The translations under genes were made by a program, and so were the position numbers. From NCBI GenBank assembly GCA_964347045.1, contig CAYFXC010000003.1:70701-134700 (forward strand): 64,000 bases of DNA. The letters run 5' to 3'. This document shows, in pieces, positions 47,599-55,480 of the stretch (position 1 is its first letter; every line of letters begins with the position of its first letter). Below the pieces are notes generated by a model. The model did no database searches and was not told the DNA's origin. It saw nothing but the letters and a program-made list of their open reading frames with translations. Source of the stretch: an uncultured archaeon. Its GTDB lineage: Archaea > Asgardarchaeota > Hermodarchaeia > Hermodarchaeales > Hermodarchaeaceae.

Positions 47599-48506
47599 CC
47601 GTTTTTTTCTACTATTAATGTGTGTTCAGCCTGGGCAATAGGGCTTCCATCCTTTAATCCTAATACTGAATAATTATGAATGCATCCCTCTCGTTTAAGC
47701 ACGTTTAGTATTTGGGCTACTTTGTCTGGTTCTACTAGCTCAGCCATCCAACGGGACGCAAAAGGTAATTGACTAAATTTAATTTTCATCTGACTAAAAA
47801 GAGAGCGTAATTTGGGATCCTTTGGATTTCGCACGTGAGTAAATCCAAAAATATGCCCTGGTTCCAAATTATCAACATGAGGATTTTGGCTATAAGTGGC
47901 GAAGGGTTCAATAGCTACAACCATGTTTTCCTTTAACCGAGGCGAGCTTGTACGTTCCGTTGCGTATGTCACCGAAGGAACAGATATTCCAGCATGAAGA
48001 TTAAATTGTTCGATACTATGGCCTGTGAGGTTTTCAATCGGGCGCGTTTTCATCTGTTGCATTGCGGCTGAAATGGCTTTAGATACATTCCAAATGCGGA
48101 TTCCTGCTCGAACGGTGTTAATTGCTGCCTCCAAACCTGCTTCTGCTCCATCAATAAGCTGTTGAAGGCCTTCATCATCACCGACTAAAACAGTTCGAGC
48201 ATTATCTGCAACAAAACCATCTATGTGTACACCCAGATCAATCTTTACGAGAGCAATATCCGGAATTTGCGTAGAATCATCTAAGCTTGGTGTATAATGA
48301 GCCGCATGATGATTTATCGAGATGTTAATAGGAAACGCAGGTTTTCCACCAAGGCTTTGGATTTTAGTTTCTCCTGCTTCAGCAATTGAATATAATGGTT
48401 CACCTGCTTTTACGAGATCACAAGAAAATACTAGTGCTTCCGAAGCGATTTTTCCAGCACGCTGTAATTTTTCGCGTGTTCGTTCAAACATTGCCATATC
48501 ACGCAT
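47571..48506 (-). CDS. map: Type II methionine aminopeptidase
   Basis: AFP.NIS..AAHYTP, KIDLGVHIDGFVADNA, NLTGH, AIEPF, QAEHT. Confidence 0.96.
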   Translation of the reverse strand: MRDMAMFERTREKLQRAGKIASEALVFSCDLVKAGEPLYSIAEAGETKIQSLGGKPAFPINISINHHAAHYTPSLDDSTQIPDIALVKIDLGVHIDGFVADNARTVLVGDDEGLQQLIDGAEAGLEAAINTVRAGIRIWNVSKAISAAMQQMKTRPIENLTGHSIEQFNLHAGISVPSVTYATERTSSPRLKENMVVAIEPFATYSQNPHVDNLEPGHIFGFTHVRNPKDPKLRSLFSQMKIKFSQLPFASRWMAELVEPDKVAQILNVLKREGCIHNYSVLGLKDGSPIAQAEHTLIVEKNGCTVTTARH

Positions 48507-48637
48507 ATCAAATCGTTTCCGTTAAGTGGATTTGTCTAATTTCACGTGAAATTAAGACAAAATTTGTCGTTGACTTTAATTTAGGTATTACTCCTAGTTT
48601 AGCTAAAGGTCAAAAAGAGTTAAGAATAGACTTTCCA

Positions 48638-51382
48638 ATGGTTAAGAAAGGTGGATGTAAGCCACTTACCTCGGGGGCTCCGAATGTGACTACATTAGCA
48701 GAGCTTCGCAAGTACTACTCCATGCTAAAAGATATTAGTGCAAAATGTCGGACAATTATGGGTGGTCTCCCTTCTGAAATTAAAACCTCATTGGAAGATG
48801 TGGGACGGGAACTTGTAAGCCTAGAAGGTTTTGATAGGGATGCAAAAACGAGTTGGTCCCTAAGTCCGAAAAAACGTCGTCTTATAAAGCAAATTGATCA
48901 AGGGCTGCCAAAAATCGATGAAGATCTCTCTCGTTCACTTCGACTTCACATTGAGCTGTTGAAGACTTACATGACTGAGCTTGAAGAGCTAAAAGCAACA
49001 ATAATGACTTTTGATATTAAACTAGGACGTGATCTCAACAATCTCACCTTTCCTTCGACACAAGGGGGACATTCAGTTGTTTTGCCGGTTCTTTCACGAT
49101 TTGTAGCTAATTTTGAAGGTCTTTCTAAACAATTACGTGACGCTCTACTAAAGCAAACGAATGATATGCTTGAACAAAATCGGGCGTTGATTAAAACCTA
49201 CGATCGGTTTGTTGGTATTGACACGAGTGATGTTTCAATTAGTGCCGAGCGGGAAACTGTTGATGTGAGTACTATCCCGGAGCTTTTTGAAATTCGCAAG
49301 ACACTACGCCAAGAGCATGAATATCTCACAAGTCGACGTGGCGAAGTTGTTGATACATTACGAGCGAAACTGCAAGCTAGTATTGAATCCTCCGTATCCC
49401 TCTTAGAGACTGCTCGTAGTTTGAGTCTCAAAGTTCCTATGGCTATTTCTACATCACTTGAAGCGCTGAAAAAACAACTCAAAGGTGAGACTAATCTCAC
49501 CACACTTCTCGGGTTGGTTCAACAATATGATGGGCAAGTGTTAAAAGCCTCAAGTGAAGTCAGAAGCCAAATACTTGAATTTGGTCATAATCTTAACCGC
49601 ATTCTTGCTAGCGCTAATATCGCTAGTGAAGCCACTTTTCTTCCTCCTTTACCTCCTGAAGTTCCCAAAGATGCGGATTTAGCTGCGCTAGTTGCAAGCT
49701 ATGAACGCCTACAAGCATACCATACCAATGTTGAAACAGCTATCCGTGCTGAGATCATGCGTATAGTAGATGATTTGACTCGTGCTGTAAAACGGAATGT
49801 GCTTCCAAACACTGCGGAACTAGATAAATTCGTGAAAAATGAATCGAAAAAGGTAAAGAAAGGAGATCTGAAAGTTCTTGTCAAGGTATACTCCGAGGTT
49901 GCGGCTCAAATAATTGATGAACATGGAAAATTACTAGCTGAAATTAGAACTCAAGAAGCTTTACTAACTCGAATCTCAGAAACCGCTAGTACAATTCTTG
50001 ATAAAACCACAATGGGTGCAGCTCCTGCTCCTGTTCGAACCACAGACATTAGCTTCCCTGAGTTGGTTGAGGCGTATGCAAGACTACGAAAGCATGTTGA
50101 GAATCGGATCGATCTGTTCCGAAAAGCTTGGGAACGTGAACTCAACGCGCTTCTTGCTGAAATCCAAGTGATAAAACCAACCTATCGGGAATCTTTCAAA
50201 ACCATGGAAGAATTTTTGGAAAGTGCTATTGCACATATCCGCGCTAGTACTAGTTTCGAGGAAATTGAAGAAGTCGCCCGTGAGGCTCAAGGAGATGCTC
50301 TATATAAAGCGCAAGACGCCATTGAAAATCTCAAATATCGCCTAGATCTCAAACTGCGATTGGCGGTTTCAAAACTTTTAGGTATGGGGTTAACTATTCC
50401 TTCGGAAGTCCAGTCAGCCATTCAAGAACTGACAACGGTGGTCCCCGCTAGTGAAACCTATGAAGAAGCGATTCGTAAGGCCCATCACATTGTTGAACTT
50501 TTCGAAAAACGAATTGTGGGATACTTCAACCAGACTCTTAATGAACAAATCAAAGCCTTCTCAGAGTTAACAAGCGTGTCTGCTTCCTTGGGCATCAAAA
50601 CAGACTCTTATGTCAAAGAATCAATGAAACTGCAGGACAAATTACCCGCAAATATTGAGGAACTCCCTGACCGGTTCGACGAACTTCGTGAATTACTTAC
50701 CGACCCTAAGTTGCTTAAGGATATCCGTTCGAAAGCCAACGAAGTCTGGCGAAATCTCAATTCAGTTACTGATCTTCTTGAACGTCATGGACAAGCCGAG
50801 ATTGTAGCTAAACTAAAGGATCTGCTCGCTCGTGTTCCCGACGCCTTAGAAGCTGAACAAGTAAACACTGTTCTTGAAATTTGTATGGCTCTCATTGAAG
50901 CGCAAAATAGTGTACTTGATATTCTTCGCAACATGGAGCAAAAGACTGGACAAGCATACGAGCAGTTATTAGAAAATACTACCGAATACTACTCAACGAT
51001 TAAAAGAGTATACGCGGCACGACCGCTTGAATTTAGCAAAATCATATTTCCGTTAGATACTTTGCAGAATTTGCGTGGAAAATTAGAAACCGTTAATTCT
51101 CTACCCGAATCTATTGATATATTCACAACCATCCGCAGTTTAGAACAGCAATGGTTAGAAAAAATCAAAGAGCTTGATGAATGGCACAAGGCGCTCCGCG
51201 TTTTCCTCGCTGACTTTAATCCAGCGGCGCCTAAAGCTGAACGTAATCGTCAACTCAACGAAATCGAAAAAAGAATTCGCGAAACCTATACGCGCGAGGA
51301 TACTGCAAACTACCTCACTTGGGCTGCCAGAGAACTTGCAGCTGTCATGATCGAACAAAAAACAAAAGCAAAGAAAAAATAG
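48638..51382 (+). CDS. Large all-alpha / coiled-coil protein (~900 aa)
   Basis: Continuous amphipathic helices, no TM, no NTPase motif. The ORF-track start at 48386 overlaps map, so ATG 48638 or GTG 48686 is preferred. Confidence 0.75.
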   Translation: MVKKGGCKPLTSGAPNVTTLAELRKYYSMLKDISAKCRTIMGGLPSEIKTSLEDVGRELVSLEGFDRDAKTSWSLSPKKRRLIKQIDQGLPKIDEDLSRSLRLHIELLKTYMTELEELKATIMTFDIKLGRDLNNLTFPSTQGGHSVVLPVLSRFVANFEGLSKQLRDALLKQTNDMLEQNRALIKTYDRFVGIDTSDVSISAERETVDVSTIPELFEIRKTLRQEHEYLTSRRGEVVDTLRAKLQASIESSVSLLETARSLSLKVPMAISTSLEALKKQLKGETNLTTLLGLVQQYDGQVLKASSEVRSQILEFGHNLNRILASANIASEATFLPPLPPEVPKDADLAALVASYERLQAYHTNVETAIRAEIMRIVDDLTRAVKRNVLPNTAELDKFVKNESKKVKKGDLKVLVKVYSEVAAQIIDEHGKLLAEIRTQEALLTRISETASTILDKTTMGAAPAPVRTTDISFPELVEAYARLRKHVENRIDLFRKAWERELNALLAEIQVIKPTYRESFKTMEEFLESAIAHIRASTSFEEIEEVAREAQGDALYKAQDAIENLKYRLDLKLRLAVSKLLGMGLTIPSEVQSAIQELTTVVPASETYEEAIRKAHHIVELFEKRIVGYFNQTLNEQIKAFSELTSVSASLGIKTDSYVKESMKLQDKLPANIEELPDRFDELRELLTDPKLLKDIRSKANEVWRNLNSVTDLLERHGQAEIVAKLKDLLARVPDALEAEQVNTVLEICMALIEAQNSVLDILRNMEQKTGQAYEQLLENTTEYYSTIKRVYAARPLEFSKIIFPLDTLQNLRGKLETVNSLPESIDIFTTIRSLEQQWLEKIKELDEWHKALRVFLADFNPAAPKAERNRQLNEIEKRIRETYTREDTANYLTWAARELAAVMIEQKTKAKKK

Positions 51383-51394
51383 GGTTGGATTAAC

Positions 51395-52744
51395 ATGGAA
51401 GCAACTGATGAAGGACCGCGAGTCGCGGAAGTATTTGCCATCGGAATTGGAGAATGCGGAAGCAACCTCGTTGGGGCCTACCTCAAGCAAGCGCGTGAAC
51501 GCATGCTACCACCACGTATCCGCGGATACTTGTGCATGAATACTGATCGATCCGACATAACGAAGCTCCGTCAAAAATATGACATTCCCAAAGAAAACAC
51601 TCTCCTTTATGGCGCATCAGATATTGGTTGTGGCGGGAATTTTACTGATGGTTATAATTACGTTCATGACTTTAAAGATGTCATCATGGGTCAGTTGACG
51701 CAACTGGGGTTTGAGGGAGTCTCTGGGTTTGTCATATTTACGTCATCGGGCGGTGGAACTGGCTGTGGAGGCGCCCCCGCTTTAATTGAGATATTAAAGG
51801 AAAGATTTCAAGAGGAAGAAGGCCGTCGCATTTTCGTCTACGTCTTTACCGTACTTCCTTTCAAGGATCAAACCTCTGAAGCTCTCAACACTATGTGGTC
51901 GCTCTCCAAACTTCTGCGTGGGCAATTAGAAGATCGCGGAGCTGATCTTGTTTGTCTCCTTAGTAACCGCGCTATGCTTCGACGTATTCTGGCTTGGCGA
52001 GAAGGCGAAGTAGCTGATTTCTTACAAAAGCAGTTACAAATTGATGTGGCTAAAGTTACCGATGTTGAAGGAATGGTTCCTTCAACTGTCGATGGTGCCG
52101 ATGATGTGTCCAAGGCACAAGAATCAGCTTTTGTGGAACTCGTGAATCCTCTTGCGCTTAGGTTTGTTGAGCACATGCTAAGTCCTGGCGTCGTTGAGCC
52201 GGGTAAAGAAGTTTTTCCGACAACGGACATCGCAGACTACGCAAGGAAACTGGATCCTATTGTGGTGCCCTGTCTATATACTGATGTAAGTCTAATTCCC
52301 TCTGCTGGAAACATTCCGACGCAACTAAAAACAATGGTCAAATATGCCGTTGAACATTGTAGCTTTGCCGAAATCGGTTCAGAGCCAGGGGCTTCATCGA
52401 CATATTATACCTTCTCAGGAACTCGTGAATATGCACGAGCTGAATACGATCCACATATTAAACAGGCGCTTCGCCCTTATATTGCAAAGGGCGCAGCGAT
52501 TACACCCTGTTTTGTGTCCTATGATGAGGACACCCATCCATCTGATTTACTTCTTCTTTTGGGACTTCCTCAGATTCCTGAAATTGAGGATTTGGTAAAT
52601 TCAGCTACTGAACTTGTGGATCTTCATGCAGGTCCCTCGCCACTTCGAAGAGGTTGGTTTAAGAAATCTAAGGGTGTCGGTGAAGAAGTTCTTCGTGCAT
52701 CCATCCGTGATGTTGCTGAATTATTCAATCTCGAAATGAAGTAA
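51395..52744 (+). CDS. Divergent tubulin/FtsZ-superfamily GTPase with tubulin-like features
   Basis: GIGECGSNL, MNTD, GCGGNFTDGY, GFVIFTSSGGGTGCG, LLSNRAM, T7-like TTDIADY, and C-terminal helices. Confidence 0.9.
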   Translation: MEATDEGPRVAEVFAIGIGECGSNLVGAYLKQARERMLPPRIRGYLCMNTDRSDITKLRQKYDIPKENTLLYGASDIGCGGNFTDGYNYVHDFKDVIMGQLTQLGFEGVSGFVIFTSSGGGTGCGGAPALIEILKERFQEEEGRRIFVYVFTVLPFKDQTSEALNTMWSLSKLLRGQLEDRGADLVCLLSNRAMLRRILAWREGEVADFLQKQLQIDVAKVTDVEGMVPSTVDGADDVSKAQESAFVELVNPLALRFVEHMLSPGVVEPGKEVFPTTDIADYARKLDPIVVPCLYTDVSLIPSAGNIPTQLKTMVKYAVEHCSFAEIGSEPGASSTYYTFSGTREYARAEYDPHIKQALRPYIAKGAAITPCFVSYDEDTHPSDLLLLLGLPQIPEIEDLVNSATELVDLHAGPSPLRRGWFKKSKGVGEEVLRASIRDVAELFNLEMK

Positions 52745-52771
52745 ATTAAGCATTAGTGGAGAAGAAGAAGG

Positions 52772-53782
52772 TTGATAACAGCAGAAGAATTGCTGGAACG
52801 CATCCTCATTCTCACCACAGTCAACTCCACTCTTATTCATGCTCTTATTACCATAGAAGCCGAAGGAGATCTTAATCCTAAACAAATCAACCAGCTTGCT
52901 AGAGGAGTCCGGGCGGTTCGAGAATCGGTTGAGCAAGCACTAGTCGACTCAAAAAATAACAATATTTCTTCAGGTTCGTCCTTTGTGGATGACACCATCA
53001 AAGTTATTCTCACTCATCTTGAACGCATTGAAGCAGCCTTGGACTCATATGCGAAATCGCGAAAGAGAAAAATCTCAAAAGTGGAAGTAAAAGAACCCAT
53101 TATTGCTACCCAACAACTAGTTGCTGAAGCTAGCGAGGATCTTGCGGGACTTACTAGTAAGCCATTTCAACGTCGACTTTCTGTTTTTGATCCGGATAAG
53201 CTTCTTCCACCTATTCAGCAGTTATTGGATAAGTATTCCAGCAGGAGTCACCTTCTTTTACCCAATTATTGGTTCGAATCATGTCGGGAGCTATTCCGAT
53301 ACAGTGAACCACGTGAGGTGATCAAAGAAGTTACGCGTATAGCAAGTCAAATTTTCTACTCTCTTACACGCCGATTTCTTGCTGAAGCACCCTGTGCAGG
53401 TCTGCTTCAAGAACTTTCACGAAAAGGTTCACTAGGCAACGAATTAAACAGCCGTGAACGGAATAAAATCGCGGGAACTAGTAGTGAGTTCTATGATCAG
53501 CTTGCTAAAGCTCTAAAAGAAAATTCAGTAAAATCGAGTATTTCAGATGCTAAACGGAGTCTTCGCTCCTTTGATTGGGGTCCGGCTGACGTAGAGAAAC
53601 GGGTAGTTGGTGTAATTCATCGCAGTGCACGAGAACTTGTGGACCAAGCTGCAGATGGTAAGACTCTTTCAGTCCTAGAACGAATTATCCACGCTGAGCT
53701 TAGTCGCTACATCTCTGCGTTAGCTACGAATCTCCATAACTTACCGCGATTAAACAAATTGTTAACCGATATGAAGGTCTAA
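52772..53782 (+). CDS. Hypothetical alpha-helical protein, co-oriented with the tubulin-like gene
   Basis: 336-aa ORF 27 bp downstream with a purine-rich RBS; helical pattern. Confidence 0.7.
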   Translation: MITAEELLERILILTTVNSTLIHALITIEAEGDLNPKQINQLARGVRAVRESVEQALVDSKNNNISSGSSFVDDTIKVILTHLERIEAALDSYAKSRKRKISKVEVKEPIIATQQLVAEASEDLAGLTSKPFQRRLSVFDPDKLLPPIQQLLDKYSSRSHLLLPNYWFESCRELFRYSEPREVIKEVTRIASQIFYSLTRRFLAEAPCAGLLQELSRKGSLGNELNSRERNKIAGTSSEFYDQLAKALKENSVKSSISDAKRSLRSFDWGPADVEKRVVGVIHRSARELVDQAADGKTLSVLERIIHAELSRYISALATNLHNLPRLNKLLTDMKV

Positions 53783-54390
53783 GTTGGGTATAGTCGCTTC
53801 TTTAATTGTGCGTTCCCTGTTTCAACGTCATAATCAATCAAATCTGCTCGAGAAAGGTCGCCCAATGCTTTTCTGATTGCAGTAGCTTCATGTCCGGCTG
53901 TTTTTGTAATCTCGTCGCGGGTCATCTTTTTCTTCTTTCCATGCAAAAGGAACAATGTCTTCGCATGGGGTTGAGCATAAAAGACGTCTTCAAGTAACGC
54001 AATGTATAGGGCTAACAATTCCTGAACCGGGATTGATGTTTCTTGTTCAGCTACCAGCTCTTTGTAGGTGTCAGACATCTTCTCTAATTGTGTCTTAATG
54101 GCGTTAAGTTCTGATTCTAAAGCTCGGTTCTTGACCATCAAATCAGTTGATTTATCCGCTGATTCCTTCAGTTCATTGATTGTTCTTTCCAATCTGTCAA
54201 TGGTCGCATTCTTGTTTTGAAGGTCACTGGTTAATTCCTCTATGCGTGCTTCTGCGGTTTTATTCCGTTCACGTTGCTCTACAAGCTCTTGGTTCATGTC
54301 ATTGACAATTTTTTGAACTTTTTTTACAGTCTTTGTGGCTTCAGCAGGATAATCCTTTTCGGGTGGTTTCTCAGTTGCCATTCTATTCAC
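53779..54390 (-). CDS. Coiled-coil + C-terminal winged-helix protein
   Basis: Heptads over ~aa 20-115; MTRDEITKTAGHEATAIRKALGDLSRADLIDYD. Confidence 0.75.
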   Translation of the reverse strand: MNRMATEKPPEKDYPAEATKTVKKVQKIVNDMNQELVEQRERNKTAEARIEELTSDLQNKNATIDRLERTINELKESADKSTDLMVKNRALESELNAIKTQLEKMSDTYKELVAEQETSIPVQELLALYIALLEDVFYAQPHAKTLFLLHGKKKKMTRDEITKTAGHEATAIRKALGDLSRADLIDYDVETGNAQLKKRLYPT

Positions 54391-54448
54391 CTTCTATTGT
54401 CACTTTACATTGCTTAGGGTTTCTTGTATTTATGGCTAGAGTTTTCAT

Positions 54449-55480
54449 CTACTTAGTGTTTTTTTGTTTGCGAGTTGCAATACGGTTGAGTTGAGGTGGT
54501 GGCGGAGGTGCTACAATTGATTCTTGGGTAAAATCGAAAATAGTTATCACGTCATTTTCAAACGTTGCCTTCAGTTGTTGTGTAGAATCCACAGTTCCCA
54601 ATGAGGTGGCTGTTAATTTATGTTCTTTAAAGATGGATATGACCGATTTAACATTATCCGGAATAGTCGTGACGATAAACCCTGTCGAGATGTACATTTT
54701 CAACCAAGTAGTTAAATCAAGATTCTTTGGAACAGGTATAGCCGCAAAATCGATGGTTGCGCCCTTTTGCGCATACTCCAACATTAGAAGGCTTGTCCCA
54801 ATAATGCCTCCGTTGCTCAAATCCTTTGATGCGGTAAGAAGACATCGTTCTGCAAGAACTCGCATTGCTTCATATCGTTTGAGAACATCCTTCGACTTCT
54901 TAAGGGCGGTAGTGTCCCATCCAAACTCATAATTCGGAGAAACACGTCCTTCTAAATCGACTGCTAGAATGAGCTGATCACCTGGCTGAGCTCCACCCGC
55001 ACTGATATAGGCTTCTCTGGGAACTGTTCCACAAATTGATGCACTTACTCCATTAATCGGGGCATTGGGTGTCGTATGTCCTCGGACTACTTCAACTTTG
55101 AACTTTTGCCCCGCGTCACAGATTCCTTCCATAAACTTCACACCTGCTTCCATTTCAGTGAATGCGACGTTAACCATAGCCACAATTGGGCGTCCACCCG
55201 CTGCATAGATATCATTCACATTAACAAGGATAGCAGCATACCCGGCAACATACGGCTTAGACTCCGCTAGTTCTGGGATGACTGCATCTGTTGAAAGCAA
55301 AATAAGATTATCTCCACCCAGGTCAATGGCTGCGGAGTCCTCTCCAATTGAAGAGAGAACATGTGGGCATTTGAACCCTTCATTTCGAAGAATTGTTACC
55401 AGTTGACCAATTGGTTGTTTACGGCGTAATCCCCAATAGTCTTTTACATCAGAAACGATAGTAGACAACTTTTCAGGCAT
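54449..55480 (-). CDS. AIR synthase (PurM)-related protein (methanogenesis marker 2/Sll0787-like)
   Basis: GEDSAAI, LVNVNDIYAAGGRP, GHT, SKDLSNGGIIG. Confidence 0.85.
   Translation of the reverse strand: MPEKLSTIVSDVKDYWGLRRKQPIGQLVTILRNEGFKCPHVLSSIGEDSAAIDLGGDNLILLSTDAVIPELAESKPYVAGYAAILVNVNDIYAAGGRPIVAMVNVAFTEMEAGVKFMEGICDAGQKFKVEVVRGHTTPNAPINGVSASICGTVPREAYISAGGAQPGDQLILAVDLEGRVSPNYEFGWDTTALKKSKDVLKRYEAMRVLAERCLLTASKDLSNGGIIGTSLLMLEYAQKGATIDFAAIPVPKNLDLTTWLKMYISTGFIVTTIPDNVKSVISIFKEHKLTATSLGTVDSTQQLKATFENDVITIFDFTQESIVAPPPPPQLNRIATRKQKNTK

Follow-up and report, generated by a model that had tools for sequence, protein, structure and literature searches.

Asg.Tub, an Asgard GTPase of the tubulin/FtsZ superfamily with a tubulin-like C-terminal tail and two linked helical partner genes

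Background

Among the unsettled matters in the origin of eukaryotes is the rise of tubulin from FtsZ-like ancestors; true tubulins have recently been found in Asgard archaea. A 64,000-nucleotide stretch of the genome of an uncultured archaeon of the Hermodarchaeaceae (Asgardarchaeota; GenBank assembly GCA_964347045.1, contig CAYFXC010000003.1, forward-strand positions 70,701 to 134,700; hereafter the window) carries a gene (51395..52744, forward strand) that encodes a tubulin/FtsZ-superfamily GTPase of 449 amino acids (aa), recognised from its open reading frame, a match to Pfam family PF00091, its homologs and an AlphaFold2 model. Its sequence places it in Asg.Tub, a family already named in 2023. 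We consider it probable that Asg.Tub is an Asgard-only lineage of the superfamily, separate from FtsZ, CetZ and the true tubulins, and that it forms a GTP-dependent filament system together with two partner proteins.

Membership of the Asg.Tub family

Asg.Tub was named by Santana-Molina, del Saz-Navarro and Devos (2023; Front Microbiol 13:1100249; PMC9871819) from four Heimdall and Thor sequences. The authors found its placement to be unstable, grouping either with tubulins or with CetZ, and judged it nearer to CetZ than to tubulins; their C-terminal hidden Markov model had no match in other families and limited CetZ similarity only, and coiled-coil genes were noted as neighbours. The window protein agrees block for block with the supplementary C-terminal alignment of that study (AFVELVNPLAL, MLSPGV, FPTTD[IL]ADYARKLDP.VVP, LLGLP.IPE and GWF.[KR][SA]KG are common to both). 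One of our homologs, P0085, is the published Heimdall LC-3 sequence OLS26264 (its C-terminal strings are exact); it is 50% identical to the window protein and lies in one clade with it (support 100/99). Where identity could be measured, published members are 50–62% identical to the window protein, which comes from a different genus.

More than 120 homologs were collected at 48–94% identity, of which the named ones are all Asgard (labelled Thor, Heimdall, Hod, Hermod, Asgardarchaeia or 'Promethearchaeota') and nearly all annotated as hypothetical; such conservation marks the gene as real and under selection. An Asg.Tub profile searched against a library of 1.84 billion proteins returned only two full-length cluster representatives (50% identity clusters), the next relative lying at E 3e-40. 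In the literature the name was found only in PMC9871819, and the recent work on Asgard tubulin and FtsZ that we searched does not describe the family. Our analysis agrees with PMC9871819 on restriction to Asgard archaea, on helical or coiled-coil neighbours and on an unstable position between CetZ and tubulin. What is new beyond it is a tubulin-like tail match with controls, a structure model, a strict three-gene module, and a broad distribution complementary to that of true tubulins.

A mosaic sequence

Pfam assigns PF00091 to residues 12–195 of the window protein (E 2.8e-18; 67.3 bits, the gathering score being 33) and no family of any kind to its C-terminal half. FtsZ_C (PF12327), Tubulin_C (PF03953) and CetZ_C (PF21011) all lack a match there at E ≤ 1, while a genuine CetZ, P0140, matches PF21011 at 4.2e-49; the score for the NCBIfam FtsZ equivalog TIGR00065 is 26 bits, far short of its 295.2-bit cut-off. 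When whole profiles were compared, Asg.Tub aligned best with CetZ (E 1.6e-21, 355 columns), followed by FtsZ (E 1e-19, 162 columns) and, weakest of the three groups, tubulin (E 2.5e-11, 130 columns). The best sequence match among solved structures was likewise a CetZ (4b46, E 7e-10).

Comparison segment by segment with hhalign indicates that these overall rankings conceal a composite. Over residues 10–76 FtsZ (P 1e-10) and CetZ (P 1e-8) match, whereas the tubulin match is not significant (P 0.07); residues 77–198 match CetZ best (P 1e-17), with tubulin (1.4e-13) and FtsZ (2.7e-13) about equal behind it. Taken in isolation, residues 199–261 have no match to any of the three profiles and residues 262–394 no significant one. 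Homology of the C-terminal domain to CetZ by sequence was considered, as the full-length alignment spans this domain, and was rejected since the isolated segment reaches only P 0.15. Residues 395–449, by contrast, match tubulin alone (P 4e-4, in co-linear position; CetZ P 0.31). The window protein thus reads as a mosaic, with an FtsZ/CetZ-like front, an insert and C-domain sequence specific to the family, and a tubulin-like helical tail.

The front part is the GTP-binding domain (residues 12–195, 51428..51979, forward strand, as are all parts of the gene), delimited by the Pfam span, invariant residues, segment profiles and a table of motifs. Its loops are T1 (GIGECGSN), NTD (49–51), T3 (78–87), T4 (GGGTGCGGAP, 119–128), T5 (LPF..E..N, 154–165) and SN (190–191). 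Positions that are invariant across 59 aligned members include G17, G19, E20, G22, N24, N49, T50, G78, G80, G81, F83 and G86, then G119–G123, G125, G126, P128, E162, N165, W168, S190 and N191, and in the C-terminal part N251, D278, D281, W421, F422, K426, G427 and L443. The nucleotide-contact positions in T1, T3, T5, N191 and N251 are unchanged across these members. T4 of the window protein (GGGTGCG, 119–125) has Cys in place of the Ser/Thr of GGGTG[ST]G, and C124 is present in at least 90% of members; with T4, the pocket made up of T1, T3, T5, N191 and N251 is intact.

Following this domain is an insert between H6 and H7 (residues ~199–236, 51989..52102), defined by DSSP, by the lack of a profile match and by its presence, partly conserved, in all 59 aligned members. 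It comprises two helices (205–214 and 218–227, predicted local distance difference test (pLDDT) 50–55) and an acidic linker, and the distance from N191 to N251 is 60 residues compared to 22 in tubulin, making it about 38 residues longer. Core helix H7 follows (residues 237–262, 52103..52180, from DSSP), with the invariant N251 that is common to H7 of CetZ and tubulin. The T7 loop and H8 (residues 275–285, 52217..52249, PTTDIAD) were placed by their invariant columns and contain the acidic pair D278 and D281, in the D..D spacing of FtsZ NxDFAD. The C-terminal (activation) domain (residues 263–394, 52181..52576) has family-specific sequence and, from fold comparison of the isolated domain, an FtsZ/CetZ-like fold. 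Within it the loop between S7 and H9 is conserved (D297, P302, G305, Q310).

At the level of motifs, S4 (GF.IFTS) and T5 (E..N) are tubulin-like in Asg.Tub, while T3 (GVGG), T4-H4 (GGGTGCGG.P), LPF, NTD and T7 (D..D) are FtsZ/CetZ-like. The initial annotation had taken the window protein to carry tubulin-type rather than FtsZ-type signatures. Its reading frame and all the motif strings it quoted can be located in the 449-aa translation (GECGSNL 20–26, NTD 49–51, GCGGNFTDGY 78–87, SGFVIFTSSGGGTGCG 110–125, GAP 126–128, EALNTMWSLSKL 162–173, SNRAM 190–194, TTDIADYARKLDP 276–288, GWFKKSKGVGEEVLRASIRDVAEL 420–443), and it was right that the NTD and GAP motifs (126–128 for the latter) and the acidic T7 residues are retained, the last invariant and with FtsZ-like spacing. 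The 'tubulin-type' label itself does not hold: it claims too much for a protein of mosaic build. Profiles rank CetZ above FtsZ above tubulin, residues 10–76 are FtsZ/CetZ-like, and T3, T4-H4 and T7 are of FtsZ/CetZ type across the family. Two further points need to be corrected in part. GCGGNFTDGY, which had been likened to tubulin T3, is indeed present, but GCGGNF is peculiar to the window sequence and the family consensus, GVGGkF, is CetZ/FtsZ-like; and the insert proposed after SNRAM exists, though at ~38 residues relative to tubulin rather than ~45.

Predicted structure and the C-terminal tail

The AlphaFold2 model built from the 59-sequence alignment (pLDDT 84.4, predicted template-modelling score 0.86) has the tubulin/FtsZ two-domain core, the two domains being joined by H7. 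After the last strand it continues into three confident helices. The first (residues 395–411, 52577..52627, from DSSP) is the equivalent of H11, and the S10/H11 start aligns to CetZ (P 8e-4). The other two (416–426 and 430–443, 52640..52735, pLDDT 80–95) form a tail resembling tubulin H11'-H12 in both structural and profile alignments, and residues 420–447 carry the motif GWF.KSKG....L..A..D...LF.

In Foldseek searches with the full model CetZ2 and CetZ1 (4b45, 4b46) ranked first (E ~1e-19) and Asgard, Odin, bacterial and eukaryotic tubulins followed at most tenfold behind in E; FtsZ was not among the top 50 matches. Alignment with VIA-align gave Z scores of 34.0–34.4 over 323–328 residues for CetZ, ending at model residue 409–418, and 34.0–34.3 over 361–362 residues for OdinTubulin, reaching residue 447; other tubulins scored 32–33.4 and reached residue 446–447. 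The tubulin alignments therefore cover some 30–37 residues more than those of CetZ. On the predicted model, CetZ and OdinTubulin tie and the tail is covered by tubulins only: the last two helices extend past the end of the solved CetZ chains and find their counterpart in H11'-H12 of tubulin. In tubulin, H11'-H12 is the outer face on which partner proteins dock.

The resemblance extends to sequence over 27 columns, where WF.RSKG....L..A..D...LF..Y of Asg.Tub aligns with HWY..EGM.E.EF.EAR...L...Y of tubulin (score 27.7, P 2.5e-5). The match is reciprocal, with P values from 2.5e-5 to 7e-4. None of 200 column shuffles reached this score (mean 9.8, standard deviation 2.1, maximum 16.4), and a reversed query gave 10.5 and unrelated helical profiles 13–21; rotation controls were uninformative because most rotations keep the matching segment intact. 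As far as a predicted model and a short profile match reach, then, the H11-H12-like tail proposed in the initial annotation stands. Folded alone, the C-terminal half is also confidently modelled (pLDDT 84.2). Its sheet domain is nearest to CetZ1 (Z 10.4) and FtsZ (Z 9.4–9.9), at a root-mean-square deviation (rmsd) of about 3 Å, and among the 50 entries listed, long alignments reaching the last helix came from tubulins only.

Phylogenetic position

A tree of 60 proteins over 397 columns was inferred with IQ-TREE (LG+C20 with posterior mean site frequencies), comprising 14 Asg.Tub, 14 CetZ, 10 FtsZ, 18 Asgard and eukaryotic tubulins and four orphans. Nine long-branch sequences were left out (orphans P0134, P0135, P0136, P0147, P0150, P0157, P0160 and P0196, and FtsZ P0156), and artubulin, TubZ and gamma-to-zeta tubulins were not part of the set. 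Long branches remain in play in this topology. Asg.Tub (100/99), CetZ (100/97), FtsZ (100/100) and tubulins (100/100) are each monophyletic, and Asg.Tub thus nests in neither CetZ, FtsZ nor tubulins. OdinTubulin, the AtubA/B-type Asgard tubulins and the eukaryotic tubulins all fall within the tubulin clade, and Asg.Tub lies outside it across a very long stem.

A split separating FtsZ and CetZ from the orphans, Asg.Tub and tubulin has support of 95/77. Constraining Asg.Tub and the orphans to group with CetZ costs only 1.73 log-likelihood units and is not rejected by the approximately unbiased (AU) test (p-AU 0.356). The suggestion of a distinct lineage, apart from OdinTubulin and AtubA/B and nested in neither CetZ nor FtsZ, agrees with this tree. 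That the lineage is intermediate by descent is a different matter: the maximum likelihood tree does place it on the tubulin side, but a position as sister of CetZ is tenable too.

Sister to Asg.Tub (99/98) is the metagenomic orphan P0125 (L018:8001-9374, on a Logan contig from SRR7811641), a singleton protein that is closest to the family among non-members (E 3e-40) and lacks the WF..KG tail motif. No large helical gene was found upstream of it, where SMC, ScpA and pyrimidine-synthesis genes lie instead. A candidate partner gene beside it (BLASTP E 0.003) was rejected on profile comparison (probability 3%). Five further proteins (P0138, P0141, P0162, P0157, P0196) belong to an unnamed tubulin-like clade, supported at 100/100 in the tree and lacking a Pfam match to the C-terminal domain. 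Members of the P0138 group end in a helix, [FY]R.IR.NLE.YL, that resembles tubulin H12, and an H12-like end may therefore be common to several archaeal tubulin-like clades outside CetZ.

A three-gene cassette and its distribution

The GTPase gene lies between two genes for helical proteins on the same strand. The upstream partner gene (48638..51382, forward strand; identified from homologs, BLASTP and a genome survey) encodes an all-helical protein of ~914 aa. Its start at 48638 was set from homolog lengths, the open frame beginning at 48386, and its stop is 12 bp from the GTPase start. Homologs of this gene lie directly 5' of the GTPase in Heimdall-, Loki- and Asgardarchaeia-labelled contigs (BLASTP 7e-28 and 6e-47). 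The downstream partner gene (52772..53782, forward strand; BLASTP and genome survey) encodes a helical protein of 336 aa and begins 27 bp after the GTPase stop; it matches the downstream open reading frames of two of our homologous contigs, L003 and L005, at 3e-14 and 5e-18. Pfam and NCBIfam searches gave no family for either partner. Across the family the upstream protein is ~900–1170 aa and the downstream one ~300–360 aa.

Of the 400 genomes of the phylum surveyed, 126 have the GTPase, 123 the downstream partner and 129 the upstream protein, and all three occur in the same taxonomic families and no others. The GTPase and downstream partner occur together in 121 genomes, the GTPase alone in five and the partner alone in two. 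In the pairs checked the three genes are adjacent on one strand (e.g. G336 C84 5511-8201, 8236-9588 and 9620-10684), the one exception seen being G387, with 8 kb between the GTPase and the downstream partner. The GTPase is co-inherited with both partner genes, and the three are almost certainly co-transcribed.

Only 8 of the 400 genomes carry true tubulins, recognised by Tubulin_C; they belong to families f9, f19, f26 and f27, in which Asg.Tub is absent. A PF03953 search of the window's own genome gave no match. Asg.Tub is far commoner among Asgards than true tubulins, but since the genomes are mutually related, this complementarity is to be taken as a pattern, not as a statistical test.

The window's own genome has one canonical FtsZ (L001, G000 C1:101583-102920; FtsZ_C 1.4e-25). 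Across its genus (this genome and 13 others, completeness 72–91%) no genome has more than one canonical FtsZ in addition to Asg.Tub, which may point to the loss of one FtsZ paralog in this genus. We considered whether Asg.Tub is in general a replacement for FtsZ2 and rejected this, since three other carriers (G001, G320 and G005) have two FtsZs plus Asg.Tub; it is therefore not a general FtsZ substitute.

Most genomes with Asg.Tub carry a single copy. A second, diverged paralog is present in eight genomes of genus g21 in family f10 (G067, G057, G061, G068, G072, G073, G074 and G077), scoring E ~1e-204 to 1e-207, where the first copy scores ~1e-225 to 1e-231. In these genomes the paralog has, directly beside it, a diverged upstream helical gene of its own; in G067 the two lie at C1:2897428-2898738 and 2898763-2900736 (both reverse strand). 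No second downstream partner was found in the genomes with this paralog.

A candidate filament system and its alternatives

In FtsZ and tubulin the acidic T7 pair activates GTP hydrolysis in the neighbouring subunit. By analogy with FtsZ, CetZ and tubulin, Asg.Tub would bind GTP and assemble head to tail into protofilaments in which each subunit inserts its T7 loop into the pocket of its neighbour and so brings about hydrolysis there. Gene linkage suggests that the upstream and downstream helical proteins bind this polymer, and most likely the three proteins make up one dedicated cytoskeletal system in which the partners serve as scaffold, bundler or regulator. As to its role in the cell, our guess would be the organisation of shape, membranes or cargo, and not division.

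Several points weigh against a filament system of this kind with a tubulin-like tail. With its place in the H6-H7 region, close to the longitudinal interface in tubulin, the ~38-residue insert could alter or block canonical polymerisation. Partner binding is deduced from gene linkage. The match between the tail and H12 is short (27 columns, hhalign probability 27–75%) and could reflect convergence of amphipathic helices, and in the isolated C-terminal half tubulins span the tail at an rmsd of 4.5–5.5 Å with Z scores of 8.2–8.8, below those of CetZ and FtsZ. Finally, our literature search turned up no experimentally characterised member of the family.

The most durable alternative, though one to which we give a low probability, is that Asg.Tub is a divergent CetZ controlling cell shape in the manner of Haloferax CetZ1. 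CetZ (Haloferax volcanii CetZ1/CetZ2, 4b46/4b45; Methanosaeta CetZ, 3zid) is the best overall match by profile and fold and the first by sequence and by Foldseek, and it shares with Asg.Tub a short FtsZ-like N-terminus with NTD, the T4 motif GGGTG.GG.P and an H11 helix after S10. The AU test retains the CetZ-sister position, one source labels the LC-3 member 'Tubulin-like protein CetZ', and PMC9871819 too places the group nearer to CetZ than to tubulins. However, CetZ is monophyletic to the exclusion of Asg.Tub, the C-terminal half has no match at E ≤ 1 to the PF21011 domain that a genuine CetZ matches strongly, and neither the isolated C-domain nor the tail has a significant CetZ profile match. 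CetZ also has neither the H6-H7 insert nor the three-gene cassette, the gene neighbourhood is different, and Asg.Tub has two more C-terminal helices where CetZ has an acidic disordered tail. Archaeal FtsZ1 and FtsZ2 share NTD, LPF and the T7 D..D with Asg.Tub and match residues 10–76 best, but Asg.Tub lacks FtsZ_C, falls far below the TIGR00065 cut-off and forms a separate clade.

Less probable again is a protein that forms no filaments at all and instead serves, bound to the large helical partner, as a cap, nucleator or switch under GTP control. The position of the insert near the expected longitudinal interface would suit such a role, as would the strict linkage of the gene to two partners and the presence of FtsZ, which could cover division. 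But the invariance of D278 and D281 makes sense mainly if one subunit activates hydrolysis in another, close structural relatives all polymerise, and the S7-H9 loop is conserved.

It is very improbable that Asg.Tub is a bona fide early-branching tubulin making microtubule-like tubes, as OdinTubulin and AtubA/B are, for although the maximum likelihood tree puts it on the tubulin side, S4 and T5 are tubulin-like, the tail matches H11'-H12 and its whole chain superposes on tubulins (OdinTubulin 7evb, AtubA/B 9f6t, BtubA/B and eukaryotic alpha, beta and gamma; Z 32–34.3 over 353–362 residues, with OdinTubulin tying as best fold match at Z 34.3 over 362 residues), it lies outside the tubulin clade on its long stem, lacks Tubulin_C, the tubulin-type N-terminal region and the long H1-S2 loop, differs in T1 (GECGSN against GQ[CA]GNQ), T3 (GVGG against GAGNNW), T4-H4 and T7 (D..D against D..E), has no tubulin match over residues 10–76 and the weakest overall profile match to tubulin, occupies non-overlapping taxonomic families, and is single-copy in most genomes and therefore has no alpha/beta pair.

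In the tail, WF..KG....L..A..D...LF..Y in the family corresponds to HWY..EGM.E.EF.EAR...L...Y in tubulin. A bolder proposal, which we hold only tentatively, is that Asg.Tub is the closest surviving sister of tubulin, combining an FtsZ/CetZ-type nucleotide domain with a homologous H11'-H12 tail, and that together with its two dedicated helical partners it represents a third, undescribed Asgard cytoskeletal system, replacing true tubulins where these are absent. If this were so, the docking surface used by microtubule-associated proteins and motors would predate tubulin proper, and if the partners bind at the tail, Asg.Tub would record an intermediate stage in the building of the microtubule surface. 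A homologous tail would also make this a defined three-protein system to reconstitute; if the tail is not homologous, Asg.Tub is still a widespread, uncharacterised cytoskeletal module of archaea.

Complex prediction and neighbouring genes

Complex prediction for the GTPase with GTP and the downstream partner was weakly supportive, with a median ipSAE of 0.58 (runs 0.70, 0.11 and 0.58; best control 0.00), with contact agreement of at least 94% and partner pLDDT of at least 76. In calibration, 58 of 80 solved complexes reached the mark, as did 2 of 110 mismatched pairs; seven of those 80 reached it at 0.60 or under, and so did both of the passing mismatches. This prediction is not counted as evidence either way. 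A scan of positions 48300–54500 for promoters and terminators gave four promoter-like sites compared to 10.9 expected; being of bacterial type, it is uninformative for archaeal DNA.

Beyond the downstream partner lies a convergent gene (53779-54390, reverse strand) for a protein of 203 aa, with a coiled-coil N-terminal half, a winged-helix C-terminal part and weak matches to TrmB, TFIIE-alpha and Lrs14. It was considered as a fourth gene of the module and rejected: compared with the convergent genes in L003 and L005 it gave E values of 1.5 and 24, and without similarity to these counterparts it falls outside the module. A gene for an Arf/Ras/Roc-type small GTPase (L005:3532-4113; L003:1-37) precedes the gene for the helical protein, immediately in the Asgardarchaeia contig and by a few kb in the Heimdall one, and is absent from that place in the window. 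In a family lacking Asg.Tub, one genome (G011, C26:888-1427) has, besides FtsZ, a 442-aa frame with a weak PF00091 match (E 1.7e-7), and this divergent protein may represent yet another tubulin-like lineage.

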